The notes under the pieces were generated by a model, which saw nothing but the letters and a program-made list of their open reading frames with translations, ran no database searches and had not been told where the DNA came from. From a bacterium (GTDB lineage: Bacteria > Patescibacteriota > Minisyncoccia > UBA6257 > UBA9933), in NCBI GenBank assembly GCA_021796335.1, contig JAJYHZ010000001.1, positions 219,454-283,453 on the forward strand: a stretch of DNA of 64,000 nucleotides, read 5' to 3'. Within the stretch, counting starts at the first letter, position 1; every line of letters begins with the position of its first letter. The translations under genes were made by a program, and so were the position numbers. This document shows positions 8,417 through 42,148 of this stretch, in pieces.

Positions 8417-11152
8417 TTATGGATTCGTAATCGTGCAGGTGTTGCCGCAGGAGCCTGCCGGCGTCTTACCGGTCATGGTTTCGTAATGTGCGTCGATCTG
8501 CGCCTGCGAAAGCAAGTGATCATACACTGCCACCTTACCCACCGCGCCCTTGAACCATGTGTCCATCGCCATCGTACCGATGGTAAGAGGTGATGAACCC
8601 GCTTTCGGCGCAATATCGTACTGGCTCATACAGCCAGTCGGCGCGTGCGCAGCAAAATCTTGCTTAACGCCATCCACCCAGATGTTAATGGTGCCTGGAT
8701 ATGCCGAAGAACAAGCCGGGGGTGTTTGTGTCGTGTCATATTCCGCAACGACATAAACCCACATACCAGTCTTAAACAAGCCTGCGACCGGCTGCCAATC
8801 CGCCGCGCTGCCTAAACCCGCGGATGGATTAAAGACATAAGCGGAGAAGCGGTTCGGACGGTTTTCAGGGGTGACAGCGCTGTAAAGACGCGCCTCCCAC
8901 TCACAGCTTGGCGAGTAGTTCTCGCATTTTCCCATCCAATCAACATAGCCATCACCGCTTGCGTTCGGGAACTGAAGTGTGTCAAGCCGCACCCAACCTT
9001 CCCAGGTAAGCTGACCGGTAGTCGGGATGGAAAGCGCAGGATTAGACGGAACCGTAAGATACTCGCTTGAACCGTTAAAGTCGGCGGCGATATCGCCGTT
9101 AGGCATTGCTACCGTGCTTGGCGTACCGCCTTTGTAGGTGCCGTCATTACCGTGGCCAGAAAGATCTGTCTCGTGCCCCGACGAAGACGAATTCATCGAA
9201 AAATACATAACCGGATTATCGGCAAGTATGAGCGAGTCGTATGTCGAAGCCGGAACTGAAGCTGATACTGGGTCAAGAGTGGAAATCGGCGCCAAAGCGC
9301 TATTTACTGCAACCGATGAATTAGAAAAAACATAATTTTTGAACGAAGCATCCATAAAATCTGTTCTAACTCCCCCATAACCGGTGTTTGTCATCGGCGA
9401 TCCTCCTTGTGATCCGTTATCGGTTGTCTGAACCGCTAAAACCCAATTTCCAGTATTATTCTTGTCAATATAAACCTGGATAAGAACCGAACCATCCGGC
9501 TGGTTAGTTACAACCGAGCGAAGTCCGATCCATGTATTTAGCGGAATTAAATTGGGATTACTGTTCTGATTGTAATTTCCGGAATAAACCTTGTTTAAAG
9601 CAAGTGTGTAGTATGCGCCATTTTCTTTTTTCTTAATTACGGCCTGCCCGTCAACACGAATACCGGTATAATAAACATTATTCTGATCGACGTATCTATT
9701 AAAAAAGAAAATGCCATTTGACGCGTTCCTATTCGGACTCGAACTTAACCAATACTTAGACACATTAAAATACGCCTGTTGCGATTCATTTTGATTTGAT
9801 GATTTAGTTACCAAACGAAAGATATTTTGCGGATGATAACCGTTATCAGTATCCACCGGATTTGTACTGTTGTACAAAATTCTCCATGGATCATTACTCG
9901 GCAAGCTTCCCGTAATTGATTTTCCCACTCCATTATTTACATAAAAGTATGCGCCCGAACTTAACCACCAATCCGAATCAGCACTTGCACTCATGGAATC
10001 TGCTTCAGTAATTATTCGATTTGCATTGAGTCCATAATAATTAGAAGTGGAAGTAGAAATGTTTACAGTAGAAGAACTTGTCTGGATATTTGTCGTCGAC
10101 GTTGTTGGACTGTTTGATTGAATTGACGTATTGCTTAATGTCTCACTGCCAGCGTCTGCAAAAGCATTAATGTAATTGAGATCTGTTGCTGTAGATTGTT
10201 CTGTTCGAAACGCATAACCAAGACCAACTGTTTTTTCTGACGATCCTTGCGGAGTTACGTAAATATCATAACTATGGTTGGGAATATCGATTGCCAAGCG
10301 GAATGTGTAAGTATTCCCCGCAGTATAAGGAATTGCGGTTTGAGCTTGATAACTTGAGCCGTTTCTGGCATCAATGTTCCCGTTAGTATTGAATCTGACG
10401 ATTGCGGCAAGATCAGTAAATTTTGAAGCTAATTGAGAAGACAGTCCGATAACGCCGTCCATATTATTTCCGTTTGGTATTGCATCAAAAGTAGCAGTGA
10501 ATTTGCCATTTTGAGCAGTTATTGGATTTCCTTGCCAGACGGAATTTGTTGTTATTGAGTTGTTTGTATTTGTTGTTGTCGTCGACGTTGTTGGACTGTT
10601 TGATTGAATTGACGTATTGCTTAATGTCTCACTGCCAGCGTCTGCAAAAGCATTAATGTAATTGAGATCTGTTGCTGTAGATTGTTCTGTTCGAAACGCA
10701 TAACCAAGACCAACTGTTTTTTCTGACGATCCTTGCGGAGTTACGTAAATATCATAACTATGGTTGGGAATATCGATTGCCAAGCGGAATGTGTAAGTAT
10801 TCCCCGCAGTATAAGGAATTGCGGTTTGAGCTTGATAACTTGAGCCGTTTCTGGCATCAATGTTCCCGTTAGTATTGAATCTGACGATTGCGGCAAGATC
10901 AGTAAATTTTGAAGCTAATTGAGAAGACAGTCCGATAACGCCGTCCATATTATTTCCGTTTGGTATTGCATCAAAAGTAGCAGTGAATTTGCCATTTTGA
11001 GCAGTTATTGGATTTCCTTGCCAGACGGAATTTGTTGTTATTGTTAAGGTTGAATTAGTAACGGCATTAGCTGGTAAAATTATCAAGCTAAGCGCCATTA
11101 TTCCCAATAAAACACCTGAAAATGCTTTATTGAGATTAGAAGCATAATTCAT
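8417..11152 (-). CDS. secreted repeat protein with C-terminal LamG/concanavalin-A-like domain
   Basis: 911 aa with a signal peptide (MNYASNLNKAFSGVLLGIMALSLIILPANA). It has two identical ~162-aa modules and S/T-rich linkers. The C-terminal segment ...DLSGHGNDGTYKGG...FNGSSEYLTVP...WEGWVRL is typical of LamG-like jellyroll domains. The 3' third (8417-9400) is much GC-richer than the rest of the gene. Confidence 0.75.
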   Translation of the reverse strand: MNYASNLNKAFSGVLLGIMALSLIILPANAVTNSTLTITTNSVWQGNPITAQNGKFTATFDAIPNGNNMDGVIGLSSQLASKFTDLAAIVRFNTNGNIDARNGSSYQAQTAIPYTAGNTYTFRLAIDIPNHSYDIYVTPQGSSEKTVGLGYAFRTEQSTATDLNYINAFADAGSETLSNTSIQSNSPTTSTTTTNTNNSITTNSVWQGNPITAQNGKFTATFDAIPNGNNMDGVIGLSSQLASKFTDLAAIVRFNTNGNIDARNGSSYQAQTAIPYTAGNTYTFRLAIDIPNHSYDIYVTPQGSSEKTVGLGYAFRTEQSTATDLNYINAFADAGSETLSNTSIQSNSPTTSTTNIQTSSSTVNISTSTSNYYGLNANRIITEADSMSASADSDWWLSSGAYFYVNNGVGKSITGSLPSNDPWRILYNSTNPVDTDNGYHPQNIFRLVTKSSNQNESQQAYFNVSKYWLSSSPNRNASNGIFFFNRYVDQNNVYYTGIRVDGQAVIKKKENGAYYTLALNKVYSGNYNQNSNPNLIPLNTWIGLRSVVTNQPDGSVLIQVYIDKNNTGNWVLAVQTTDNGSQGGSPMTNTGYGGVRTDFMDASFKNYVFSNSSVAVNSALAPISTLDPVSASVPASTYDSLILADNPVMYFSMNSSSSGHETDLSGHGNDGTYKGGTPSTVAMPNGDIAADFNGSSEYLTVPSNPALSIPTTGQLTWEGWVRLDTLQFPNASGDGYVDWMGKCENYSPSCEWEARLYSAVTPENRPNRFSAYVFNPSAGLGSAADWQPVAGLFKTGMWVYVVAEYDTTQTPPACSSAYPGTINIWVDGVKQDFAAHAPTGCMSQYDIAPKAGSSPLTIGTMAMDTWFKGAVGKVAVYDHLLSQAQIDAHYETMTGKTPAGSCGNTCTITNP
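10085..11043. repeat. perfect tandem direct repeat, 2 x 486 bp, inside the CDS
   Basis: The sequence tgtcgtcgacgttgttggactgtttgattgaattgacgtattgcttaatg... recurs with an offset of exactly 486 bp (10091 vs 10577). About 470 bp of each copy are identical by eye. Confidence 0.85.
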
Positions 11153-12866: not shown

Positions 12867-15617
12867 TTATTGCGGATTTAGCATTTTTATTCCATAATCA
12901 TTAGTCACCACCTTTACTCCGGTCTGCGCGATATAATCCACTATTTGCTGGAATAATGCCGGCGTGATCGCGTAATTATCATTACTTGAATCAACCCTGT
13001 GAAATACTAAAACCAGCCATGTTTTGTCGGCGATTGACTGGTTAATCCAATTTTCGAACTGAGCCAAAGTGGTCGTATTTACCGCTTCCTGATATTTCAA
13101 TAAAAAATGGTCTGTTGATTTATCATTAAATCCGCTTTGCGTCGTTCTCGCTCCGACATATAATCCTGAATTTTTTAAAATCTGAACGGAAGTTGCGTCA
13201 TATTCTCCAAAAGGATAAGCAAATGTTGTTACATTTATGCCGATGCTATTTAGGGCATCCCACGAACCAGTAATTTCGTTCTGTTGGTCCGCATACGATA
13301 ATTGCGGCAAATGCGAATGATCAATCGTGTGCGAACCAATTTCCATTCCTTGGCTCTGCATATCCAAAACTTGAGCCGCATTTACGTAATCCGTATAATT
13401 GCCGTTAAGCGTATTGGTTATTATGTAAAATGTCCCTGATAAATTCGCTTGTTTTAAAATCGGAAAAGCTGTCTGATAAGCAGATATGTCACCATCATCG
13501 AAATTCAACGAAACCATCCCTTCAGAAAATTTATAAGGATTGTTTCCTAAATCTTTTAAATAATAATCATCTACTTTTAAAGATCCGACTCCGGTCAAAC
13601 TATGAAAAATAGTTATGGTTTTTGTGCCTGACGGAACTGCAAATTTTACATCAACCCCATTCCAGTTGTTTGCAAGAGTCGGACTCGCAATCGTTTGATA
13701 TTGATATGTCCCATCGGACATATGTAGCGCGACTTCAACCGTGTTTTGCGCAGTAGCCATATATTTATCCGAAAATTCATATAAATCTCCCGAAGTCGCA
13801 TTAACTTCAGAAAAATACCATTTCGCATCGCCGTTAGTATAGGAAGAAATATCAATTTCAGCCGCTTTACTATTAGTGCCGTCCACACCCGAAACCGGAT
13901 AAATAAAATTTGGAGTATTTACTCCCCATCCTCCCTCATACCAATTTTGCGGCAAACCTGTTGCGGAATCTGCAATTTCAAAGGATGGGTTCTTAATTAA
14001 ATTATCAGTTGATGTAGGAGGCGGAGGAGGAGGCGTCGGAGAAGTTATATCATTTAAATTAAATTCCCCGGTTGTTAATGAACCGACGCTCACCAAAGAG
14101 TGCAAAATTGTAACAGATTGCGAATTAGCAGGAGCAATAAAAGTGGACGTTGCAACTGCCGGGCTAATTGATGCCCCGGGCCTTGATAAAAGCAAATAAG
14201 AATATGTTCCGTCTGCTAAATGCACTCTGGCAATTATTGCCGTTGATGTGTCGGCGGTATAATAGTCGGAAAATTGGTATTGATGGCCGGGAATAACCGC
14301 AACATCCTTAAAATACCATCTGGAAGCTCCGCTTGTATATGAAGATATGCTTATTTTTGCCGCATCATCATTATTAAATCCCGCGACAGGATAAGTAAAT
14401 GTTGTTTGGTTAACGCCCCAATTGCCCTTATACCAGCCCTGTGGCAGACCGCTTGAAGCATCCATTAATGAAAGCGAGGGATTGAAAATTAAGTTATCAG
14501 TATTTGTTGCCGCAGGCGGCGAAGGCGGAGGAGAAGGCGTTGATGTTGATAAATAAAAATTGTCGGTTGTCAGCGAACCTGCGCTGTCCAAATATTGGTA
14601 AATATTAAGCGATTGCACGCCCGTCGGCACGACAAAAGTTGTTGTGCTGTTTTTCCATGCGTTGGATGCCGATTGAGGAAAATCAATATAAGAATAATAC
14701 CCGCCGGATAAAGTATAGCGTATTTCCAATGTAGTCGGAACTGTTGCAATGTAGGAATCGGAGAAAGTGTAAGTTTGTCCCGGTGTTGCCGGAATATCGC
14801 CGAAGGTCCACTTGGCATCTCCGCTTGTGTATGAAGTCATATCAACCTTGGCTGCATTCCCTCCGTCAATGCCCGGTACGGAATAAGTAAAGTTCGATTG
14901 GTTTATTCCCCATTTATCTTCTGTCCATCCCGCAGGCAAGCCGTCTGCGCCTACTGAATCAAAGGAACCATTATTAATTAAATTGCCGCCAGAAGACGAT
15001 GGAGGCGGAGAAATTATTGAATTTGCAATCAAGGAAAAATTATCTACTGTGAGCGATCCCACATTATCTAAATATTGATATATTGTAAATGACTTAACTC
15101 CGGCAGGAACCGTAAAAGTAGATGTGGAAGATTGCCACGTATCCGAAATGCTTGGAAATACAATGTCGTCATAAGTATAATTCCCATTAATTAAGAGATA
15201 TCTGACCTCAATCGTAGTCGGAACTGTTGCAATATAAGAATCGGAGAAAGTGTAAGTTTGTCCCGGTGTTGCCGGAATATCGCCGAAGGTCCACTTGGCA
15301 TCTCCGCTTGTGTATGAAGTCATATCAACCTTGGCTGCATTCCCTCCGTCAATGCCCGGTACGGGATAAGTAAAGTTCGATTGGTTTATTCCCCAGCTGT
15401 CTTGCGACCAACCTGCCGGCGCTCCATTTGCGCCCGTAATTTCAAAAGACCCATTGGGAATAAGATTCGATAAATCGCTTGCTTTTGTCTTAGAAATTAT
15501 CGGAAAATTCAAGGAGTTAAAAACAAAAATTATTGAAAAAAATACAACTAGGAACCTAAGAAAAACTCTTTTCATAGTATTGAAGAAAATAAAACGACCT
15601 TTTATTTTAAATTTCAA
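12867..15617 (-). CDS. secreted protein with 4 CBM-like modules and a C-terminal polysaccharide deacetylase (CE4/NodB) domain
   Basis: 916 aa with a signal anchor. It has four ~160-aa modules (NGSFE...GWxxDxWGxNQSxFTY...YTSGDAKW...Y), which are CBM4/9-like, joined by P/S linkers. The C-terminus has NFDDGDISAY...GSHTIDHSHL, which are CE4 deacetylase motifs. Confidence 0.75.
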   Translation of the reverse strand: MKFKIKGRFIFFNTMKRVFLRFLVVFFSIIFVFNSLNFPIISKTKASDLSNLIPNGSFEITGANGAPAGWSQDSWGINQSNFTYPVPGIDGGNAAKVDMTSYTSGDAKWTFGDIPATPGQTYTFSDSYIATVPTTIEVRYLLINGNYTYDDIVFPSISDTWQSSTSTFTVPAGVKSFTIYQYLDNVGSLTVDNFSLIANSIISPPPSSSGGNLINNGSFDSVGADGLPAGWTEDKWGINQSNFTYSVPGIDGGNAAKVDMTSYTSGDAKWTFGDIPATPGQTYTFSDSYIATVPTTLEIRYTLSGGYYSYIDFPQSASNAWKNSTTTFVVPTGVQSLNIYQYLDSAGSLTTDNFYLSTSTPSPPPSPPAATNTDNLIFNPSLSLMDASSGLPQGWYKGNWGVNQTTFTYPVAGFNNDDAAKISISSYTSGASRWYFKDVAVIPGHQYQFSDYYTADTSTAIIARVHLADGTYSYLLLSRPGASISPAVATSTFIAPANSQSVTILHSLVSVGSLTTGEFNLNDITSPTPPPPPPTSTDNLIKNPSFEIADSATGLPQNWYEGGWGVNTPNFIYPVSGVDGTNSKAAEIDISSYTNGDAKWYFSEVNATSGDLYEFSDKYMATAQNTVEVALHMSDGTYQYQTIASPTLANNWNGVDVKFAVPSGTKTITIFHSLTGVGSLKVDDYYLKDLGNNPYKFSEGMVSLNFDDGDISAYQTAFPILKQANLSGTFYIITNTLNGNYTDYVNAAQVLDMQSQGMEIGSHTIDHSHLPQLSYADQQNEITGSWDALNSIGINVTTFAYPFGEYDATSVQILKNSGLYVGARTTQSGFNDKSTDHFLLKYQEAVNTTTLAQFENWINQSIADKTWLVLVFHRVDSSNDNYAITPALFQQIVDYIAQTGVKVVTNDYGIKMLNPQ
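14731..15420. repeat. intragenic direct repeat, period 483 bp, ~200 bp near-identical
   Basis: gtagtcggaactgttgcaat...gcattccctccgtcaatgcccggtacgg occurs at 14731 and again at 15214. It corresponds to two of the four CBM-like modules. Confidence 0.75.
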
Positions 15618-24336: not shown

Positions 24337-24384
24337 AAATCTAATCGTATATTTTGACGATCGTCAAAATATACGATTAGATTT
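24337..24384. repeat. perfect 48-bp palindrome with CGATCG centre
   Basis: aaatctaatcgtatattttgacga|tcgtcaaaatatacgattagattt was verified base by base. It overlaps the uvrC stop codon (24383-24385). Confidence 0.9.
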
Positions 24385-25585
24385 ATGGTTTTAAACTATT
24401 AAATCTTCTTTTCCGCCTGCTTGATTTCAAGGCAAATCTATGAGCTTCGTCTCTCGCTCTTAATAAAATTCCTTTAATGCTTTGGATCAGCTCTTTAGTT
24501 GACTTTCCTGCTTTTGGCGCAAATACCAGAATATCCCCCCCCAGCTTTGATATTCCCACTAACGGAATACTCATATTCAGCTTCTGCAGAATCTTGTAAG
24601 TAAAACTTATCTGCGGTCTTCCTCCGTCAATCATTATTAAATCCGGAAATTGCCATTCAGGATGTTGAAATCTTCGAGTTAAAACTTCCTCTAGGGCACG
24701 CAAATCATCGTTTGCCGGAGCTTCTTTTATTTTAAATAATCGGTATTGTTCTTTGTCAGGCAATCCGTCGGTAAAAACGACCATTGACCCGAAAGTTTCC
24801 TTGCCAGCAAAATGTGAAATATCATATCCTTCAATTCTGTTCAGATTAAAGACTGTAGCCTCCGTCTCTTCCCTCGCTATCAACGAAACATCCTGAACAT
24901 GCCTTAAAGCCGAAATTTTTTCCGGATTATCTTTTTTTAATTTATTTAATAATTGTTTTTTCTCGCCGCGCAAAAATAAGATTATATTTTTTATATTCTT
25001 TTGGTAATCTTCTTTTGAAATTGCTCCGGCGCACACTCCGGGGCATAATCCGATTTGATAATCAAAACATGGCTTTCCCGGAAAAGGATTTGCAGGTTTG
25101 CCCGCCGGCAAACAAGTGCTATAAGGGAAAACCCGTCTTATGATTTTCAACGCGTTTTTGATTAAATTCAGGCTTTGATAAGGACCGAATACGTAAAAAT
25201 CTCCAATTTTCAATCTCCAATTTTCAATTTCCCTGCCGCGTATAATTATCGGCTTCGGATAATCTTCTTTCTTGGAAATTAATACGTATAAAAATGATCG
25301 ATTATCTCTGTCTTTTATATTGTATTTCGGCCAATATTTTTTAATGAGATTCGCTTCCAAAATTATTGCCTCCAGAAGCGTATCCGTTTGGATGTATTTC
25401 ACACACCTGGCCAATTCTACCATTTCTTGAATACGCGGATTTAATGGACGCTGAAAATATTGCGAAATTCTCCGTCGCAAAGAAGTCGCCCTGCCCACAT
25501 ATAAAATCCCACCTTTTTTGTCAATAAATTGATAAACTCCGGGGGTTAATGGAAAATTTTTTATTTTTAGTGAATTCACAGTCAT
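24383..25585 (-). CDS. uvrC: excinuclease ABC subunit C (short form lacking C-terminal HhH)
   Basis: GIY-YIG N-terminus (GVYQFIDKKGGILYVGRATSLRRR) and a central UvrBC/RNaseH-like region (RDEAHRFA). It is only 400 aa. Confidence 0.75.
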   Translation of the reverse strand: MTVNSLKIKNFPLTPGVYQFIDKKGGILYVGRATSLRRRISQYFQRPLNPRIQEMVELARCVKYIQTDTLLEAIILEANLIKKYWPKYNIKDRDNRSFLYVLISKKEDYPKPIIIRGREIENWRLKIGDFYVFGPYQSLNLIKNALKIIRRVFPYSTCLPAGKPANPFPGKPCFDYQIGLCPGVCAGAISKEDYQKNIKNIILFLRGEKKQLLNKLKKDNPEKISALRHVQDVSLIAREETEATVFNLNRIEGYDISHFAGKETFGSMVVFTDGLPDKEQYRLFKIKEAPANDDLRALEEVLTRRFQHPEWQFPDLIMIDGGRPQISFTYKILQKLNMSIPLVGISKLGGDILVFAPKAGKSTKELIQSIKGILLRARDEAHRFALKSSRRKRRFNSLKP

Positions 25586-32703: not shown

Positions 32704-33804
32704 TCAGCAAATAAGCATCCCGTCTCCAAATGAAAAAAATTTAAAATTATTTTCTTTGGCAATTTTATATAATTTTAAAACTTCTTCTCTGGAAATAAAA
32801 GAAGATACGAGCATTAATAAGCTTGATTTCGGAACATGAAAATTTGTTATTAAACCGCCCGTGAATTTGAATTTATACCCTTCTTGAATAAACAAATCGG
32901 TCATTCCGGATAAATTGACCAATTCGCCGCGGCTGTTCGAAGCCGATTCTAAAGTTCTTGCGACTGTCGTGCCTACGGCAATAATATTTTTCTTTTCTTT
33001 TTTAAGTTTATTCAATAATTTGGCGGTTTTCTTATCAATTTCAAAATACTCTTTATGCAGTTTTTTATTCAATAAATTTTCCCTATTTAAAGTCGCAAAA
33101 GTTCCCAAATTTACATGTAAAATTATAAATTCCGTTTTAATTCCGGATTTTTTCAATTTTCCGATCAATCGTTTTGTAAAATGCAAAGAAGCAGTCGGTG
33201 CCGCCACTGATCCTACTTTCTTGGCAAAAACAGTCTGATATTTTTCTTTAATTTCTTTTTGAGTTAAAGGAGAATGTTTAATATACGGCGGGATAGGCAT
33301 TTCGCCATATTTGTCCAAAACTTCATAAACTTTATTTAAAGAAAAAGACGGCTTCAGATAATAAAATTTTTCATTTTGACTAACAACTCTAAAAAATACC
33401 TTTTTATTTAGCTCCAGTTTCGATCCGATATTTAATTTTCTGTCCGACATTGCTTTAATTAAACTATCGACAATTTTAATGTATAAAATTTTTACTTTCC
33501 CGCCGCCTTGTCCCGATTCCAAAACGGCTTTTTTTAATTCTAATCTCGCTGGAATTACTTTTGTTTTATTAAAAACCAAAACAGAATTTTTTGGCAAATA
33601 TTTTTCTAAATTAAGAAATTCATCAATTTTAACTTTACCTGTTTTTCGGTTATAAATTAACAATTTTGCGGAGTCTCTTGGCGAAGCCGGTTTTTGGGCA
33701 ACAAGCTTCTTAGGCAATTCATAATTATATTTATTTAAATATTTATCAAAATTCATAGCCTGGAAAAATTTTGGATTAAAATCAATATGAAAATTATCAA
33801 TCAA
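32704..33804 (-). CDS. queA: S-adenosylmethionine:tRNA ribosyltransferase-isomerase
   Basis: YELPKKLVAQKPASPRDSAKLL N-terminus and TGGLITNFHVPKSSLLMLVSSF C-terminus. Confidence 0.85.
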   Translation of the reverse strand: MIDNFHIDFNPKFFQAMNFDKYLNKYNYELPKKLVAQKPASPRDSAKLLIYNRKTGKVKIDEFLNLEKYLPKNSVLVFNKTKVIPARLELKKAVLESGQGGGKVKILYIKIVDSLIKAMSDRKLNIGSKLELNKKVFFRVVSQNEKFYYLKPSFSLNKVYEVLDKYGEMPIPPYIKHSPLTQKEIKEKYQTVFAKKVGSVAAPTASLHFTKRLIGKLKKSGIKTEFIILHVNLGTFATLNRENLLNKKLHKEYFEIDKKTAKLLNKLKKEKKNIIAVGTTVARTLESASNSRGELVNLSGMTDLFIQEGYKFKFTGGLITNFHVPKSSLLMLVSSFISREEVLKLYKIAKENNFKFFSFGDGMLIC

Positions 33805-35156: not shown

Positions 35157-37550
35157 TTATACAAGTTCCGTTTCTTTTTCCCTTACAAAGAAATGATAAA
35201 TGCCGAATCCTATTAGAAGTCCGAGTAAAAGATCGAACAGCCAGTTGCCGAACAGAGTCCCTATGGTTCCAAGTATTGAAGCAGAAATCGACGGGCCGCC
35301 CGCCACGATTATAGTCAGGTAAGAACTTACGGCTTGGAATCTTCCCCTGTAATCTGAATAGTTCATAATCGAAGTAAATACCAGTGAATCTCCCCCTTTG
35401 GCAGAATTATTTACTTTTACTTTCATATTGACGGCGCTTTGGCTGTTTGCCGCAACAGTTCCGATCATAAACTTAAGATTATTATTCTCTTGAGAAGAAG
35501 GCTGTATATCTGCGCTTTCATAAGAGACTTCGTTCGGCAAAGCAATTTGCAAAACCGCATTTGAAACCGCGCGATTACCGCTATTCTTATACACGACGGT
35601 ATAAGTCATTTCATCTCCCGCATTCGGATTATTATTATCAACCGAAGGAGTGAGTGAAACTGTTATGCCCGGAGCCGCAGGAGGAGTGTAAACCGCTATC
35701 CCCGTACTTGGAATTGCATACGCCGGAGATTTAGTAGTAAAAGTAAGCATACTTCCGTAACTCGTACCCGCCGCGTTTTGCGCAACCGCCCTGAAATAAT
35801 ATGTCGTGTTTGAATTTAATCCGGATAAAGCGAACGATAAAGGAACGGACAATGAATCATGCCCGGCCGGCTGAACAGTTGTTTCGAATCCAAAAGAAGG
35901 GGTCGCCCCCCATTCAAACCAGGCGTTTGTAAATAGATTATTAGTTATAACCGCTCCGTTTAATACGGTGGAGTTCTGGTATACAATGCTTGCCGGTAAA
36001 GTCGTCACCATCGGTGCTTGCCCGCCTGCGCTTATAACTGCTCCGCTGCCGGTCGTAAATGTCAGAATACTTCCGTAATTCGTGCCAAAAGAATTTTGTG
36101 CAACCGCTCGATAATAATAAACGGCATTAGGAGTAAGGTTGCTTATAAAAGTATTTACGTTCATAAACCCGTTAATCTGCTGGAATCCAGACGTATATCC
36201 CAAGTTTTGTGTCGGTCCGTATTCAAACCACATACTTGCAACTGATCCGTTTGAATTCACGTCTCCATTTAAGGTTGCGGAATTCGAGGTAATATTAGTT
36301 GCCGCATCAGTATTGACGGTCGGAGCAGAAGAGATAAATCCCGTGCCGAATTGAGAGGTATTAAACGACACTATGCTTCCGTAAGTCGTGCCAAAAGAAT
36401 TTTGAGCGACTATGCGAAAATAATATGTAGTATTTGTGTTTAATGAGGAGAGGAAACTGGCGATATTAACCGCAAAATTTCCGCTTCCCGCATCCTGTGA
36501 TGCCGTTGTGAATCCCAAAGATCCGGTCGGTCCGTATTCAAACCAAACATTGGTTTCCGAATTGTTCGAATTAACAGTTCCGTTCAAAACCGCCGAATTT
36601 TGCGTAATATTAGTGGCCAAATTAGTGGTCACGATAGGAGCCACTCCGTTTATTGCGCCAGTTTGAGTTGTAAACGAAATCACATTCCCATAAGTTGTCC
36701 CAAAGGAATTTTGAGCAACTGCCCGGAAATAATAAGTTTGTCCAGAATTAAGTCCGCTCAAAAATGAAGTTATATTGAAAGCCGAATTTCCGCTGCCAAT
36801 ATTTTGGAACCCAATAGTTGATCCCAAAGAAGGGCTTGTTCCATATTCAAACCAAACGGTGGTATTTGATCCGTTTGGATTAACGCTGCCGTTTAAACTT
36901 GCGGAATTTTGCGAAATATTTGTTACAAATTGATTTAAGATAGCCGGAGCTTGGTTTTGCGCGGACTGCGACTGGCTGCTTAATTGGGCCCTGAAAACAA
37001 TATAGCCCTGTGCGCTCCATCCCGGCGCGATATCACCTATATTCAGGCCGGAAAAAGAAACTATTTCCGAACCGTTTTGGCCGTTTAATAAACCGGTTGA
37101 ATTACTCGAATCATGATTAGCGAACCATTTTACCGTTCCGGGAAGAAAAGCCAGGGTTTGAGAATTTCCCGAACTGATATTTAATGAAACATTCCCATTC
37201 GCCGAATTCGCGTTAGAAGAAAAAATTGTCCCGTTTATTGTTTGAGAAGTAAAATTTCCCGTTGGTAAATTTACGCTCGCATGCGTCTGTGAAGCCGTAA
37301 CATCCGAAGTGTTGTGGTAATAAACCAAAAAACTGATTACGTCTCCGGGATTTGCGGAAACAGAAGTTGACCAGCAGCTAGTGCATCCCGGATGCTGCGT
37401 ATAATTGGAAATCTGCAATGTCGGATAATCTTTGGGGTCAGTATTAAATGTCGCTGTTGCCGCTTGCGCGCTCAATAACGGCAAAAATATCGCCATTGTA
37501 AAAATTCCGACAAAACCTGCTTTTAAAATTATTGTTAACTTTTTTTTCAT
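35157..37550 (-). CDS. cell-surface repeat protein (4 Fn3/PKD-like modules + DUF11-like domain + C-terminal TM anchor)
   Basis: 797 aa with a signal peptide. It has four ~95-aa repeats (NITxNSAxLNGxVNxN..xWFEYG...YYFRAVAQNSFGTxYG). The DUF11-like segment is TYTVVYKNSGN. The C-terminal segment WLFDLLLGLLIGFGIYHFF is a TM helix. Confidence 0.7.
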   Translation of the reverse strand: MKKKLTIILKAGFVGIFTMAIFLPLLSAQAATATFNTDPKDYPTLQISNYTQHPGCTSCWSTSVSANPGDVISFLVYYHNTSDVTASQTHASVNLPTGNFTSQTINGTIFSSNANSANGNVSLNISSGNSQTLAFLPGTVKWFANHDSSNSTGLLNGQNGSEIVSFSGLNIGDIAPGWSAQGYIVFRAQLSSQSQSAQNQAPAILNQFVTNISQNSASLNGSVNPNGSNTTVWFEYGTSPSLGSTIGFQNIGSGNSAFNITSFLSGLNSGQTYYFRAVAQNSFGTTYGNVISFTTQTGAINGVAPIVTTNLATNITQNSAVLNGTVNSNNSETNVWFEYGPTGSLGFTTASQDAGSGNFAVNIASFLSSLNTNTTYYFRIVAQNSFGTTYGSIVSFNTSQFGTGFISSAPTVNTDAATNITSNSATLNGDVNSNGSVASMWFEYGPTQNLGYTSGFQQINGFMNVNTFISNLTPNAVYYYRAVAQNSFGTNYGSILTFTTGSGAVISAGGQAPMVTTLPASIVYQNSTVLNGAVITNNLFTNAWFEWGATPSFGFETTVQPAGHDSLSVPLSFALSGLNSNTTYYFRAVAQNAAGTSYGSMLTFTTKSPAYAIPSTGIAVYTPPAAPGITVSLTPSVDNNNPNAGDEMTYTVVYKNSGNRAVSNAVLQIALPNEVSYESADIQPSSQENNNLKFMIGTVAANSQSAVNMKVKVNNSAKGGDSLVFTSIMNYSDYRGRFQAVSSYLTIIVAGGPSISASILGTIGTLFGNWLFDLLLGLLIGFGIYHFFVREKETELV

Positions 37551-37706
37551 AATGTTTTCTTGGAATAAATTTTAGTAATTAATTTATTGAATACATTAAT
37601 TAATCGAACCTTTATTTTTCAAATTTTAATTATTTTTAAAAAAGTTTGGGAGGAGGCGTTATCCGCTCCCCCCGTTAGTTATCCCCTTTCTTCTTGCCGC
37701 CCCGGC

Positions 37707-38891
37707 TTAATTCGCCGGGAAAGGTGCCGGGCCATCAGGCTCGCCACTATTTGGCGGCGGACCGTTTGCCGGAAGAGGCGCGGGACCTGTTGGCCCCGGA
37801 ATGACGAACCTCTGCGGCTCCGGTTTTTTTATTTGCTTTCCGCCGGCATAACCGCCGACGGCTCCTAACAGTGCCCCCGCAGCTTCGCAGCGCGGGTCGC
37901 TATCGTGGTGTGGGAAAAAAATCCTATATAGCCCGGCTAGTACTCCTCCAGCCAGAAAATATGGCTGGTACCGCCGGGCCGCGAAGCCAAGTGCCAATAA
38001 TGCCGAACTGCTAGTCGAGGTAATAGTGTCCACTCCGATACAATGTACTACCGGAACGGACACTGAAGCGAACGCGGTCCCGCATTTGCTTTGAACCGCT
38101 ACGCGCATCTGGGAAACTTCTTTCCTTTTTGCGACGTAGAATGTTTTTACAATAGGCTGATTGTAATCGCCGACTACTTCAGCCTCAGTTCTGCTGCCAT
38201 CAAACTCTACCCAGCCGTATGTTTGAGTCCCGGCCGGATTTATGGAGGTCGAAATCAAATACCCGTTCTCAACCTCCATCATCTGATCGACTGTAATAGT
38301 CGGCGACGCGCATGCCACCGGCTTTTCAACAACCGGAGGAGGGACATTAACTGACGCGGGAGGAGGAACTTTAAGGCTTTCAATGGCCTTTCGCAGTTCC
38401 TTTATCTGATTTTTTAATCCGCCTATCTCAGCTTTTGCTTCAGCTTTAGCCTCAACCCTAACCGCCGCCTTTCGTACACGCACATACTTCTTTTTTACTC
38501 GTCGCTTTTTTACACCGCCAACAATGCCTGGGCATAGAGCCTCCTCTTCACAGAGGTGCGGCCCCCATACCAACGCTACCCACTGGCCGTCTTGCCGCTG
38601 AACCTGGACCGGCGACCCGAACATCATTACCGGCCCTTCTTTTCTCACTATATCATACGCCACTTCAACCGGCGTATTTTTTTTAATCCACAAAGCGCCG
38701 CCCACGGTCCGGACATACACATCTGCCGGAGACAAGATTTTTTTCACTTCGATCTTCTGCGTCTTTTTTAAAGACGCATAGTTTTTTTGAATATTCACAA
38801 TCCCCACCTGCCAGCCGAAGCTAACCGAGGGAACAAAAAACCCGACCAAAACGGCAACTGTAAAAAACGAAAAAAATTGCTTCCTCATCAT
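37707..38891 (-). CDS. compositionally foreign (GC-rich) exported hypothetical protein
   Basis: 394 aa. Shine-Dalgarno site aaAGGAGGtttta before the ATG and an N-terminal signal/TM helix. It has a KAEAKAE coiled-coil segment, a glycine-zipper-like GALLGAVGGYAGG and a Pro-rich tail. The DNA is visibly GC-rich against an AT-rich background. Confidence 0.6.
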   Translation of the reverse strand: MMRKQFFSFFTVAVLVGFFVPSVSFGWQVGIVNIQKNYASLKKTQKIEVKKILSPADVYVRTVGGALWIKKNTPVEVAYDIVRKEGPVMMFGSPVQVQRQDGQWVALVWGPHLCEEEALCPGIVGGVKKRRVKKKYVRVRKAAVRVEAKAEAKAEIGGLKNQIKELRKAIESLKVPPPASVNVPPPVVEKPVACASPTITVDQMMEVENGYLISTSINPAGTQTYGWVEFDGSRTEAEVVGDYNQPIVKTFYVAKRKEVSQMRVAVQSKCGTAFASVSVPVVHCIGVDTITSTSSSALLALGFAARRYQPYFLAGGVLAGLYRIFFPHHDSDPRCEAAGALLGAVGGYAGGKQIKKPEPQRFVIPGPTGPAPLPANGPPPNSGEPDGPAPFPAN

Positions 38892-39118
38892 TTAAAACCT
38901 CCTTTTTCCAATCCTATTTATTTTTCAATTTAACTTAAGAAATATCTTAAATAATAATAAACATTTTAAAAAAAAATGTCAAGAGCTAAATGTTTTAGGT
39001 ACATACATTCGGCGGTTTATGAAAAGGCTATTCGAAAATAGTGAAAGTATGGTGATTCTATTATGCCGGATGCAATAAAGTACCTTGATTCTGTGATTTA
39101 TTGCCTTTTTCCTGTGGA

Positions 39119-39424
39119 TTATCTAATTTTTCCCATTAATTCAGAGCTTTCTTTCTTGAAATTTTCCACCTCTTCTTTGATTATTTCATCCAAATCTTCA
39201 ATTTTGCTTTTCAAAAAATTTAAAATCATTTCTTCCGAGGAATTGCCGGCAAGCAGTTTTTCAAAATCATCCTTTTCCTCGTCGGATAATATGTCTAAAA
39301 CTCTTATAATAACTGCCTGAAAAATTATCTGTCCGATACTTATTAACGCCTCCTCCTGCTGTTCCGGAGAAAGTAATTCCAATCCCAAATCGTAAATTAT
39401 ATTATTATTTGTCTTTTTGTCCAT
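39119..39424 (-). CDS. acidic small hypothetical protein (101 aa)
   Basis: Clean ORF directly downstream of the 896-aa gene. It is E/D-rich and helical. Confidence 0.45.
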   Translation of the reverse strand: MDKKTNNNIIYDLGLELLSPEQQEEALISIGQIIFQAVIIRVLDILSDEEKDDFEKLLAGNSSEEMILNFLKSKIEDLDEIIKEEVENFKKESSELMGKIR

Positions 39425-39457: not shown

Positions 39458-42148
39458 CTATTTTCCGGCGACCTTTCCAAAATTATTTCTAAGAAAATTA
39501 AAAATCGTGGGGTTTTGTTTTAAAATCATTCGGCGGTCTTCGACAGGTATTTTTCTTATTATTTTCTCTAGCTTATCTACTAAAGCTTCTTTATCCTGGA
39601 TCGCCCACCAATTCGGGCTTCCCCACTCCGGCCTTGCGTAAGTCGGATCAAACCTGTTTGAAACGCCGTAAATAAATTTATTCTTATCTTGAGTTAAAAT
39701 ATCGGCGATGTGATGATTTTTCAAAGCATCAAGCGAAACAACGGAGTTGTCCGGATTGATTTTAAACATTGATTCAAAATATTTTTTAAAATCACTGTCG
39801 GATAGAACATTGTGCGCGCCGGCTGATTCCGGATGATTGTAATCGAAATGCGCCTCTGATCCCGGCGCGTGATAATGAAAATAATAGTCCGGATAATCTT
39901 CGGTCGCGCGGCTTCCCGCTTCATGGATATTTTTTTGAGCAGAATTATCTATCCCGAATTGCCCGCGATTTTCGGGAGTATTGTCAAGCACGCGGTTATG
40001 TGAAAATTCAGCGCCGTGGCCGAATGACAAACTGCTACCGTGCGGATCAATTTGAATGGAACCATGTCTGATATGTCTCATCATTTCTTCATATCCGGCC
40101 ATATTTTTTGAATAACCCAACTTTTCCAATTGCTTTAATGTATCCGGATTCTTTAACGCGCTTTCGGCCTGATTATGCCATAAATTATGCGCCTCTGTTT
40201 CCGCCCAATGATGTAAGTCGCCTTTGCTTTCGTTCCAGCCGAAAGATCTTGCCAATTCGTGATTTGTATCATGCTTATCTATAAACTTGTCGATAATGGA
40301 TCCTTCCGGTCCACGACTTCCTATCTCCAATTTGATTGGTTGATTTACGTGCTCAATTCCGATGTTGCCCGCATGCTGGCCGGGAATATTCTCTCCGGCA
40401 AATTGCCCATTCCCGCCTTTATTCCCGATATTCAAATGATTGTGTCCGATTGGCTCCAAATGATTTAATGAATTGCCGCCGCCAACCGTTGCATGGCGAT
40501 GCATTAAATTATTTATTTGGGAATCCCAACCATGGACATGCGAAAGCGTTCCCAATCCGTATCCTGCAGCCATACCCGTTCCCAGCATTGCCACGCCTTT
40601 TATTAATTTTTTCTTCCTATTTTTTGTCTGAAGTTGTTCTAATACTTTTTGGTATCTTTCTCCATATTCGCGCATTTTTTCCGCAGTCAATTCGCCGCCG
40701 GATAATTGCTCCCCTAATTTTTCTTTTTCACTCTTATGGAATTTTTCAATATTTCTGGATAAAACCGTATCTACACCCTTTCCGGTAAATTGACTCAGGG
40801 CGGCTCCGCCAAAGGCGCCCAAAATCCTCCTGCCGACAAAAACTGCAGCGCCGATTCCCGCAGCCGTTCCGCCGGAAACAGCAGTTGTAATCGCCACTGA
40901 TGATAAAATCCTGACGCTTCTTGGCAACTTTAAATACCCGTCCAAAGCTTTTTTGAAAATGTTCTTTTTCTTCGGTGGCCAGCTTTCAATTTTATTTTCT
41001 TGCAATGCAAGAGTTTCATTATAAATTAAGATTTTTGCAATCTCCTCAGCTTTGAATTTTTTGAGCTCATTTTCCAAATCATCGCCCTGCATGCCTCGCT
41101 CTACTAAATTATTTTTCTTTTGTTCAAGCAAAGCATTGCCGTAATTTATGTTTGCCTCTTCATAATCCAATTTAAACGCCTCCGCATTATAAATCGCTTC
41201 AGCGCGCTCGCGCGTGAAAAATCCGCCGGCCGCCGATACCTGGCTTATATATTTTTCTTTTCGTCTCAAAGCTTCCTTATATTCATCGGCCTCTGGAGGC
41301 AGTGATTTTAGTTTTTCCGGATCATCGGGACTTAATAAACCTTTGAATGATTTAATAGTTGATTCGAGAGCCCATCTTTCTTCTTTTTTTAAATTATTCC
41401 CGAAAATTCCGATATAATCTTTATAAGCATTCGCATACTCCTCGCGCCTATTATCTCTTATATTTTTCCATTCTTTTATTTCCTCTCCTTTGGTTTGTTT
41501 TTCGGTTTTAAATTTATTCTTGCCAGCCTCAAAGAATTCCCCCATATAATCTTTGCTTGCCAGATCTTGTTTTTTATTTTTTTCTTCGCCATTACTTTCA
41601 TCGAGGTTAAATCCCTTTTCACCCGCTTCAAAATATTCTGCCATATAATCCTTCTGTCTTGTCTTCCTTTTATTCTCCGAGCTTATTGGCTTATCAGTGC
41701 TATTTTCTGGTTTATCAAAGATTTCTTCTCCCTCGGGATCGGGAGTCGGATCAACCACATCATGGCTTTCAAGCTCAGCTTCTATTTCGCCATCTTCGGC
41801 TTTATTAACTGTACTATCAGAAACTGAATCGGCAACTTTTCCTGAATTTCCGCCATTGTCTTTTTGAATCAGTTCTTCCTTAATTTTTTTTAGTTTAAAC
41901 TCTATGGAATCCAATTTTTTTACATTTGACCTGCTATTATCTTCTTCATCAATGCTTATTAAATCCTCATTTAATCGATTTAAACGATTAATAATTTCCG
42001 CAGAATTATCCATTTTCCCGATTTCATCGCTTAATTCATGAATTTTTTTCAAAACCCCTCTGGCGGTCAGAGTTTCTCCGCCTTTTCCTTTGGCGATTAA
42101 TTTGTCTATCCCGCTGTGATCTTTATTATTAGGATAACCTTCTTTCAT
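39458..42148 (-). CDS. large orphan membrane-associated protein with internal repeats and His/Gly/Asn-rich C-terminal region
   Basis: 896 aa. It has repeated KDYM(A/G)E(Y/F)FEAG motifs. A central pair of Gly/Ala-rich TM helices reads SSVAITTAVSGGTAAGIGAAVFV...MLGTGMAAGYGLG. The C-terminal region is H-rich (HVHGW, HRH, HNH). Confidence 0.6.
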   Translation of the reverse strand: MKEGYPNNKDHSGIDKLIAKGKGGETLTARGVLKKIHELSDEIGKMDNSAEIINRLNRLNEDLISIDEEDNSRSNVKKLDSIEFKLKKIKEELIQKDNGGNSGKVADSVSDSTVNKAEDGEIEAELESHDVVDPTPDPEGEEIFDKPENSTDKPISSENKRKTRQKDYMAEYFEAGEKGFNLDESNGEEKNKKQDLASKDYMGEFFEAGKNKFKTEKQTKGEEIKEWKNIRDNRREEYANAYKDYIGIFGNNLKKEERWALESTIKSFKGLLSPDDPEKLKSLPPEADEYKEALRRKEKYISQVSAAGGFFTRERAEAIYNAEAFKLDYEEANINYGNALLEQKKNNLVERGMQGDDLENELKKFKAEEIAKILIYNETLALQENKIESWPPKKKNIFKKALDGYLKLPRSVRILSSVAITTAVSGGTAAGIGAAVFVGRRILGAFGGAALSQFTGKGVDTVLSRNIEKFHKSEKEKLGEQLSGGELTAEKMREYGERYQKVLEQLQTKNRKKKLIKGVAMLGTGMAAGYGLGTLSHVHGWDSQINNLMHRHATVGGGNSLNHLEPIGHNHLNIGNKGGNGQFAGENIPGQHAGNIGIEHVNQPIKLEIGSRGPEGSIIDKFIDKHDTNHELARSFGWNESKGDLHHWAETEAHNLWHNQAESALKNPDTLKQLEKLGYSKNMAGYEEMMRHIRHGSIQIDPHGSSLSFGHGAEFSHNRVLDNTPENRGQFGIDNSAQKNIHEAGSRATEDYPDYYFHYHAPGSEAHFDYNHPESAGAHNVLSDSDFKKYFESMFKINPDNSVVSLDALKNHHIADILTQDKNKFIYGVSNRFDPTYARPEWGSPNWWAIQDKEALVDKLEKIIRKIPVEDRRMILKQNPTIFNFLRNNFGKVAGK

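Follow-up and report, generated by a model that had tools for sequence, protein, structure and literature searches.

A GC-rich gene in a Patescibacteria genome is probably a resident cell-envelope gene of a very rare family, paired with a large surface-protein gene

Here we analysed a gene that stands out by its base composition within an AT-rich stretch of bacterial DNA of 64 kb (hereafter the window), which has a GC content of 38.6% and nearly all of its open reading frames (ORFs) on the minus strand. The gene occupies positions 37707-38891 of the minus strand and encodes a protein of 394 amino acids followed by a stop codon. A reading of the sequence alone had taken it for a likely horizontal acquisition. 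Taking the results from composition, homology, gene order and structure prediction together, we consider it probable that this is a resident gene of a Patescibacteria genome (Parcubacteria/Paceibacteria-type) and that its product belongs to the cell envelope and to a family both very rare and uncharacterised, and likely acts with the 797-amino-acid protein encoded next to it; a fast-evolving resident envelope protein is the best reading of the data. In this explanation the high GC content is mainly a by-product of the make-up of the protein, in which Ala, Gly, Pro, Val and Arg are abundant and Ile, Leu, Asn and Asp scarce, a property common to the family.

The composition of the gene was compared with that of the 51 ORFs of at least 100 amino acids in the window. 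Its GC content of 0.516 (51.6%) ranks first among the 51, whose mean is 0.386 (standard deviation, SD, 0.039), so that the sequence-only reading was right in placing it far above its neighbours. In bins of 100 nt the GC content climbs sharply from 0.18-0.19 in the intergenic flanks to 0.40-0.68 within the ORF, where the GC-rich run gcagcgcgggtcgctatcgtggtg is present at about 37888-37911. The GC contents at first, second and third codon positions (GC1, GC2 and GC3) are 0.587, 0.446 and 0.514, as compared with 0.445, 0.353 and 0.388 in the background, the mean GC3 across the 51 ORFs being 0.386 (SD 0.048). Amino acid composition (Ala, Gly, Pro, Val and Arg) accounts for about 74% of the GC excess, and synonymous codon choice for about 0.09 of the 0.126 difference in GC3 and roughly a quarter of the total. 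All three homologs of the protein identified below also lie 6-12 GC points above the contigs of their own hosts (0.530 versus 0.406, 0.493 versus 0.420, and 0.503 versus 0.44-0.46). The choice of codons for Ala, Pro, Asp and Asn cannot be told apart from that of the background, and in a comparison of three codon tables only, those of its own genome and of two lineages hosting homologs, its own genome fitted the gene best (-1.165 per codon, against -1.188 and -1.206), just as the codon usage of every other family member matched the table of its own host best. A sharp local rise in GC within AT-rich DNA is thus no proof of a foreign origin, as most of the signal in this case comes from a protein rich in Gly, Ala, Pro and Val.

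Searches for relatives yielded very few sequences. The full protein had no match in Pfam (E <= 0.01), NCBIfam, PHROGs, PADLOC or the sequences of the PDB, and a word-indexed search of 5.8 billion clusters returned the protein itself only. An exhaustive phmmer search of 1.84 billion representatives identified P0002 (E = 2.8e-4) and P0003 (E = 7.4e-4) only, both matches covering no more than the 110 residues at the C-terminus. P0004 was added by a search with a profile of the fn3-like domain plus the C-terminal module, which retrieved P0002 and P0004 only. The profile of the module alone found nothing in the word-indexed search, a result of little weight as the known members were missed too, and it gave noise only against Pfam (Glug, C19orf12 and PT-VENN, E >= 0.7) and the PDB (a chitinase, E = 0.23). 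When the homologs were compared with the window by tblastn they matched positions 37710-38213 (E = 1e-8 to 1e-10). A first pattern scan of metagenomes confirmed no member, one with P0003 as the first sequence found one further P0003-type locus only, and three hidden Markov models (HMMs) of the family identified no new members in the six-frame ORFs of 92 sequences (1.3 Mb). A marginal HMM match in L067 (E = 0.008) was dismissed as a shadow frame of a Gly-rich pilin-like gene. At 90% identity the family makes up four clusters in a total of about 15 billion proteins, the three relatives of our protein being P0002, P0003/P0005 and P0004/P0006, which are metagenomic, 255-366 amino acids long and carry no Pfam, NCBIfam or source name.

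The 394-amino-acid protein belongs to this unnamed, rare family, defined by a Cys-x-Gly, a DSDPxC motif, a glycine zipper and a Pro/Gly tail. An fn3-like domain of the type 'W-F-E-Y...VA-N' precedes the module in all members, and the module itself keeps the same order throughout: the Cys-x-Gly after the beta domain, three helices rich in Gly, Ala, Ser and Thr, [DE]SD[PA]xC, (GxxxG)n, a basic stretch, and a Pro/Gly tail with GPA. The residues invariant across the four sequences are C284, G286, T289, S331, D332, C335, G343, G347, G351 and G387-P388-A389. Outside the shared part, over which identity to our protein is 26-35%, the members diverge. The homologs are lipoproteins by their lipoboxes (LGAGC, LLSGC and FGVGC), whereas the signal sequence of our protein is of a non-lipoprotein type; its N-terminal domain has no detectable relation to theirs, and it carries in addition a basic and amphipathic-helix region with a PPP linker. 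With an hhalign probability of 0.2, we rejected homology between its N-terminal domain and the 164-amino-acid lipoprotein domain that the homologs have. P0003 is a fusion of that 164-amino-acid domain with the rest of the protein (L085, positions 1082-2182), and the domain is encoded by a separate upstream gene in L082 (9489-9983) and L084 (3788-4282). The domain has a conserved motif of its own, PV[ND]P-R-YDP...EFL...LR-C-C-NG, and its fission or fusion links a third component to the module.

Gene order ties the family to a second gene. The gene of the 797-amino-acid surface protein (35157-37550, minus strand) lies 156 bp downstream of our gene and has a native composition (GC 0.426, GC3 0.392). 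Its product consists of a signal peptide, a DUF11/CARDB-like N-terminal domain, five fn3-like 'WFEYG' repeats, a DUF11 domain and a C-terminal transmembrane anchor. The gene downstream of the homolog in L082 encodes a product 41% identical to this protein over 211 amino acids (E = 5e-41), and in L088-L090 the downstream product is 44% identical over about 650 amino acids (E = 6e-142). In L085-L087, from three metagenomes, the homolog is followed by a partner with the same N-terminal sequence, and the arrangement is seen throughout L085-L091. The contig of L084 ends before the downstream position. An ortholog of the partner stands directly downstream in all three lineages with downstream sequence, that of the window included, and no further neighbouring gene is common to the lineages. 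The central domain of our protein aligns with the repeats of the 797-amino-acid protein (E = 0.004), as do the fn3 domains of the homologs (E = 1e-11 to 1e-14). Because of this same position and same type of repeat, our protein most likely acts with the 797-amino-acid protein. As a separate observation, the N-terminal fragment of the partner gene in the lineage of P0004 (L082, 10910-11542) has a GC3 of 0.314 against 0.463 expected (z = -4.6), the reverse of the pattern in the window.

Several elements of the protein named by the sequence-only reading were found again when its layout was examined, among them the KAEAKAE segment, the glycine-zipper-like motif and the Pro/Gly-rich tail. All the segments that follow are on the minus strand. 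Residues 1-26 (38814-38891; MMRKQFFSFFTVAVLVGFFVPSVSFG) resemble a signal peptide, with a basic n-region, a hydrophobic core of 15 residues and SVSFG, and lack the lipobox cysteine that the homologs have; they agree with the earlier claim of an exported protein, which on this sequence would be exported or membrane-associated. Residues 27-125 (38517-38813) form an N-terminal domain with no detectable relatives and a low-confidence model. Residues 126-195 (38307-38516) comprise in order a basic stretch (KKRRVKKKYVRVRK), EAKAEAKAE at residues 147-155, a predicted short amphipathic helix (LKNQIKELRKAIESLK) with Leu and Ile at 4-3-4-3 spacing, and the linker VPPPASVNVPPPVV. Residues 196-285 (38037-38306) would fold as a seven-strand beta sandwich of the fn3/Ig type and are a diverged copy of the repeat type 'WFEYG...YYFRAVAQN' of the 797-amino-acid neighbour. 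The family-defining module at residues 286-352 (37836-38036) follows the invariant C284-x-G with helices rich in Gly, Ala and Ser at 287-304, 311-325 and 333-353, and contains the invariant S331-D332...C335 within the motif DSDPxC (Pro in three of the four sequences) and a (GxxxG)3 zipper whose glycines G339, G343, G347 and G351 all fall within the predicted helix 333-353. Residues 353-394 (37710-37835) are the basic KQIKK and then the Pro/Gly-rich tail, which ends in GPAPFPAN, with GPA kept in all four family members.

The structure was modelled with AlphaFold2 from the alignment of the four sequences. The sandwich at residues 198-278 was predicted with a predicted local distance difference test score (pLDDT) of 72-81 and the helices 287-304, 311-325 and 333-353 with a pLDDT of 68-85, together with a helix at 157-171. 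In fold searches the predicted sandwich matched solved fn3, Ig, PKD and CARDB structures, a likeness that is generic to Ig/fn3 domains, and the same searches gave no match for the N-terminal domain or the helical module. In our protein, P0002 and P0004 the charges read from the sequences are basic after the first helix, acidic in the DSDPxC loop and basic after the third helix, and P0003 agrees in the acidic loop only.

Placing these results into a model, the protein would be exported through Sec by means of its N-terminal signal sequence, leaving outside the cell the orphan N-terminal domain, a short oligomerising amphipathic helix and a single fn3/Ig-like domain, and it would be anchored in the cytoplasmic membrane by the C-terminal bundle of three small-residue (glycine-zipper) helices. 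The charge distribution fits an N-out topology that would put the basic segments behind helix 1 (a loop) and behind helix 3 on the inside and the acidic DSDPxC loop on the outside. C284 and C335 would then lie on the outer face, where they might form a stapling disulfide, and the Pro/Gly tail would reside in the cytoplasm. One role compatible with this arrangement, given as an example, is that of a membrane-proximal anchor or organiser of the 797-amino-acid protein on the cell surface.

A number of results weigh against a resident envelope gene with this partnership. The synonymous GC3 excess persists once the protein sequence is taken into account: the GC3 expected from the amino acid sequence and the codon table of the 48 other minus-strand ORFs of the window is 0.420 (SD 0.023), and the gene, at z = +4.1, exceeds its expectation more than any other of the 49 ORFs tested. 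The excess is strongest in the orphan N-terminal domain (GC3 of 0.586 against 0.421 expected, z = 3.6), with z = 2.25 in the fn3-like domain and 1.95 in the helical module, and GC3 is not raised in the linker region of residues 126-195 (z = -0.5). A P0003-type homolog shows a like excess in a low-GC3 host (z = +3.4). In L010, which has an ortholog of the partner with 51% identity that is also near TGT, the place upstream of the partner is occupied by a glycerate-kinase-like gene rather than by a family gene, so that the pairing is not obligatory; and with a terminator-like hairpin between them, the two genes of the window may be transcribed separately. The overall confidence of the structural models is low (pLDDT 51-56, with 56 for the AlphaFold2 model from the alignment, which has four sequences only), the C-terminal helices are moderately hydrophobic (Kyte-Doolittle values of 1.1-1.7 over 15 residues), which makes their spanning of the membrane uncertain, and we infer the function of the protein from its context only.

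The compositional results among these bear on the alternative that a GC-richer donor supplied the gene, or at any rate the N-terminal half of it, and that its amelioration is still incomplete, a scenario that we regard as unlikely. It would account for the gene being the top outlier of the window in both GC and GC3, for a composition beyond what the protein sequence requires (GC3 of 0.514 against 0.420), for the extremely sparse distribution of the family and for the presence of the partner in L010 with no family gene upstream. It would also suit the GC3 values of the family: the four genes stay within 0.47-0.52 in hosts at 0.37-0.39 as well as in hosts at 0.49, values that match those of the hosts L082 and L084 (0.49) and differ from those of the window (0.39) and L089 (0.37). 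The excess of GC is nevertheless mostly non-synonymous and family-wide, the codon table that fits best is the gene's own, and large synonymous deviations occur in native genes of this genome, since the housekeeping gene queA (32704-33804), the lowest-GC outlier of the window (GC 0.298), deviates to an equal degree and with the opposite sign (GC3 of 0.263 against 0.369 expected, z = -4.6). Marks of mobility were also sought: a scan of the 64 kb found no tRNA, the neighbours are housekeeping genes with no integrase or transposase among them, there is no PHROG match, and the sole flanking repeat is an AT-only match of 15 nt with one mismatch (37611-37625 and 38917-38931), for which we estimate a chance expectation of about 0.3. 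This repeat and a GC-rich inverted match of 13 nt were considered as att sites or target-site duplications and judged compatible with chance. The inverted match is perfect and pairs GGAGGAGGCGTTA with TAACGCCTCCTCC (37649-37661 and 39344-39356), one copy lying in an arm of the gene's terminator-like hairpin and the other in the interior of the DUF5663 ORF, both described below.

Most telling on the origin is gene order. In three lineages the place just upstream of the partner, whose composition in the window is native, is held by the family gene, an arrangement for which a lone recent insertion does not account, and three independent insertions at one spot would be unparsimonious. Among the relatives compared, none of them close (the best TGT identity is 64-67%), L010, with its partner ortholog at 51% identity, lacks the gene, and the more distant L082 and L088 have it. 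Neither recent foreign acquisition of the gene nor the earlier inference of horizontal transfer from its composition is supported; an ancient transfer may have taken place. An identity of 26-35% within the family means that any transfer among the sampled lineages would be ancient. Adopting the resident origin, the partnership itself can be questioned. The protein could be a stand-alone surface or adhesion protein whose adjacency to the 797-amino-acid protein arose from local duplication of an fn3 repeat or from shared regulation, with no physical cooperation, an option that we find distinctly improbable. The resemblance of its fn3-like domain to the repeats of the neighbour, so clear in the homologs, would be in keeping with this option, as would the promoter-like site and terminator-like hairpin that the gene has of its own and the occurrence of the partner in L010 with no gene of the family; yet adjacency and orientation are kept across lineages that share no other neighbours, at about 30% identity, which is hard to explain without selection for the linkage. 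Very improbable, finally, is a membrane-inserting effector, exported and acting like the glycine-zipper toxins, whose helices would insert into the membrane of a target (host) cell. Its helices do fall below typical stop-transfer segments in hydrophobicity, the homologs are lipid-anchored at the N-terminus and so do not strictly need a second anchor, some membrane-damaging effectors have glycine-zipper modules (PMC12955049), and all cultivated Patescibacteria are described as obligate episymbionts (PMC12206443). Opposed to these points, searches of toxin, PADLOC and PHROG families gave no match, no adjacent small immunity-like gene was recognised, the charge pattern suits a resident N-out topology of three helices, and the gene with which linkage is conserved codes for a structural surface protein.

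In the way it would work, the 394-amino-acid protein comes closest, among known systems, to an Ig/fn3 surface protein that a glycine zipper anchors in the membrane. The fn3 or Pur_ac_phosph_N-like repeats of the DUF11 (CARDB-type) surface proteins of Patescibacteria align with its domain, for which the same sandwich is predicted, but our protein has a single, strongly diverged copy and a membrane module that those repeat proteins lack. The HMMs of Pfam fn3 and Pur_ac_phosph_N did not match it, and the homologs reached only sub-threshold scores of 18-19 bits against Pur_ac_phosph_N, whose cut-off is 30. The host phylum is not known to have an outer membrane. SlyB (with its 'glycine zipper 2TM domain') and YfgH are glycine-zipper outer-membrane lipoproteins of Gram-negative bacteria, according to two preprints (bioRxiv 10.64898/2026.06.08.730324 and 10.64898/2025.12.22.696046). 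Like our protein, they are small and exported, with tandem GxxxG small-residue helices that associate with the membrane, and the homologs here are lipoproteins too; our protein differs in having a module of three helices, with two invariant cysteines and the DSDPxC loop, that lies between an fn3 domain on its N-terminal side and a Pro/Gly tail on the other. The four isolated modules had no match at E <= 10 to the Pfam glycine-zipper families considered (Gly-zipper 2TM/Rick_17kDa_Anti, Gly-zipper_Omp, _OmpA and _YMGG), and the protein is not a member of a Pfam glycine-zipper family, SlyB-type or other. Horizontally acquired genomic islets made of compositionally atypical ORFans resemble our gene in their odd GC and GC3, sparse distribution and surface-exposed product, but the gene lacks signatures of mobility, is linked to a native gene, has the codon usage nearest to its own genome, and owes its odd composition mostly to the protein, a feature repeated in the homologs.

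We regard the gene as an ordinary one for a hypothetical envelope protein, its one useful lead being the conserved pairing with a DUF11/fn3 gene. The lead is modest but concrete, as it couples a rare family with a DUF11/fn3 surface protein of large size in uncultured members of the Patescibacteria, whose surface machinery for attachment to host cells is poorly known; should the partnership be true, it could serve to test how surface proteins of this kind are anchored or organised. Taken further, and in our estimate rather improbably, the pair would be an undescribed two-component envelope module of Patescibacteria, made up of a large DUF11/fn3-repeat protein and of a small one that combines an fn3 domain, a glycine zipper of three helices stapled by cysteines, and a Pro/Gly tail, in which the small component would anchor or organise the adhesin-like one or insert its zipper module into the membrane of an attached host cell. 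The steady GC3 of about 0.5 across hosts that differ in GC content would under this proposal reflect selection on the mRNA or on translation, not ancestry.

That the ORF at 37707-38891 is a genuine gene is shown by several observations. Its coding frame is confirmed by the homology of the C-terminal 110-170 amino acids to P0002, P0003 and P0004. A contig of an ENA assembly (L001) is 100% identical to the window across 21,185 bp that cover the gene and both of its junctions, with no sign of a chimeric join in these assembled sequences, and the protein is on record on three contigs. The consensus Shine-Dalgarno site AGGAGG, which the sequence-only reading had pointed out, is located at 38898-38903 (minus strand) and is separated from the ATG by a spacer of 6 nt. 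About 60 nt upstream of the start codon lies a promoter-like site, TTGACA-17-TATTAT (38954-38982, minus strand), which matches the consensus at 11 of 12 positions and is known from this match alone, the region having 21 such sites against 16.2 expected by shuffling. Downstream of the gene, a putative terminator at 37638-37673 (minus strand) consists of a GC-rich hairpin at 37648-37673 and a U-run at 37638-37644; the minimum free energy is -25.3 kcal/mol for a stretch of 88 nt (z = -2.3), and the hairpin was not reported by the consensus scan that found the promoter-like site. The whole window had no match in Rfam, so that the GC-rich stretch is no known RNA gene.

On the other genes of the locus, the earlier statement that the gene sits between a surface repeat protein and a giant orphan was correct as to the former, but an ORF of 101 amino acids with DUF5663 (39119-39424), the immediate upstream neighbour of the gene, intervenes before the orphan, an ORF of 896 amino acids at 39458-42148. 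The orphan protein had no match in Pfam, NCBIfam, PHROGs or PADLOC and no homolog among 80 TGT loci; it has an N-terminal half rich in Lys and Glu, Gly-rich hydrophobic segments at about residues 415-470 and 535-555, and a His-rich C-terminal half. A search of the literature on DUF11 or DUF5663 in Patescibacteria found nothing relevant. The remaining neighbours are housekeeping genes, namely TGT, QueA, an RsmE-like methyltransferase, UvrB, UvrA, DnaK/DnaJ/GrpE and PCMT, and the best matches of TGT (64-67%) are to metagenome-assembled genomes of Wolfebacteria, Jorgensenbacteria, Staskawiczbacteria and other Patescibacteria. Elsewhere in the window, the minus-strand ORF at 8417-11152 (911 amino acids) contains a perfect (100%) tandem duplication of 468 nt (10090-10557 and 10576-11043) with a period of 486 nt, or 162 codons, which suggests either that a repeat protein underwent an in-frame duplication very recently or that the assembly is at fault there. 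The minus-strand ORF at 12867-15617 (916 amino acids) has a direct repeat of 187 nt with 97.9% identity (14727-14912 and 15209-15395); its size and high GC2 are like those of the 911- and 797-amino-acid proteins, and it is probably another repeat-bearing surface protein. A perfect palindrome of 48 nt (24337-24384) at the 3' end of the minus-strand ORF 24383-25585 may form a strong bidirectional terminator hairpin.

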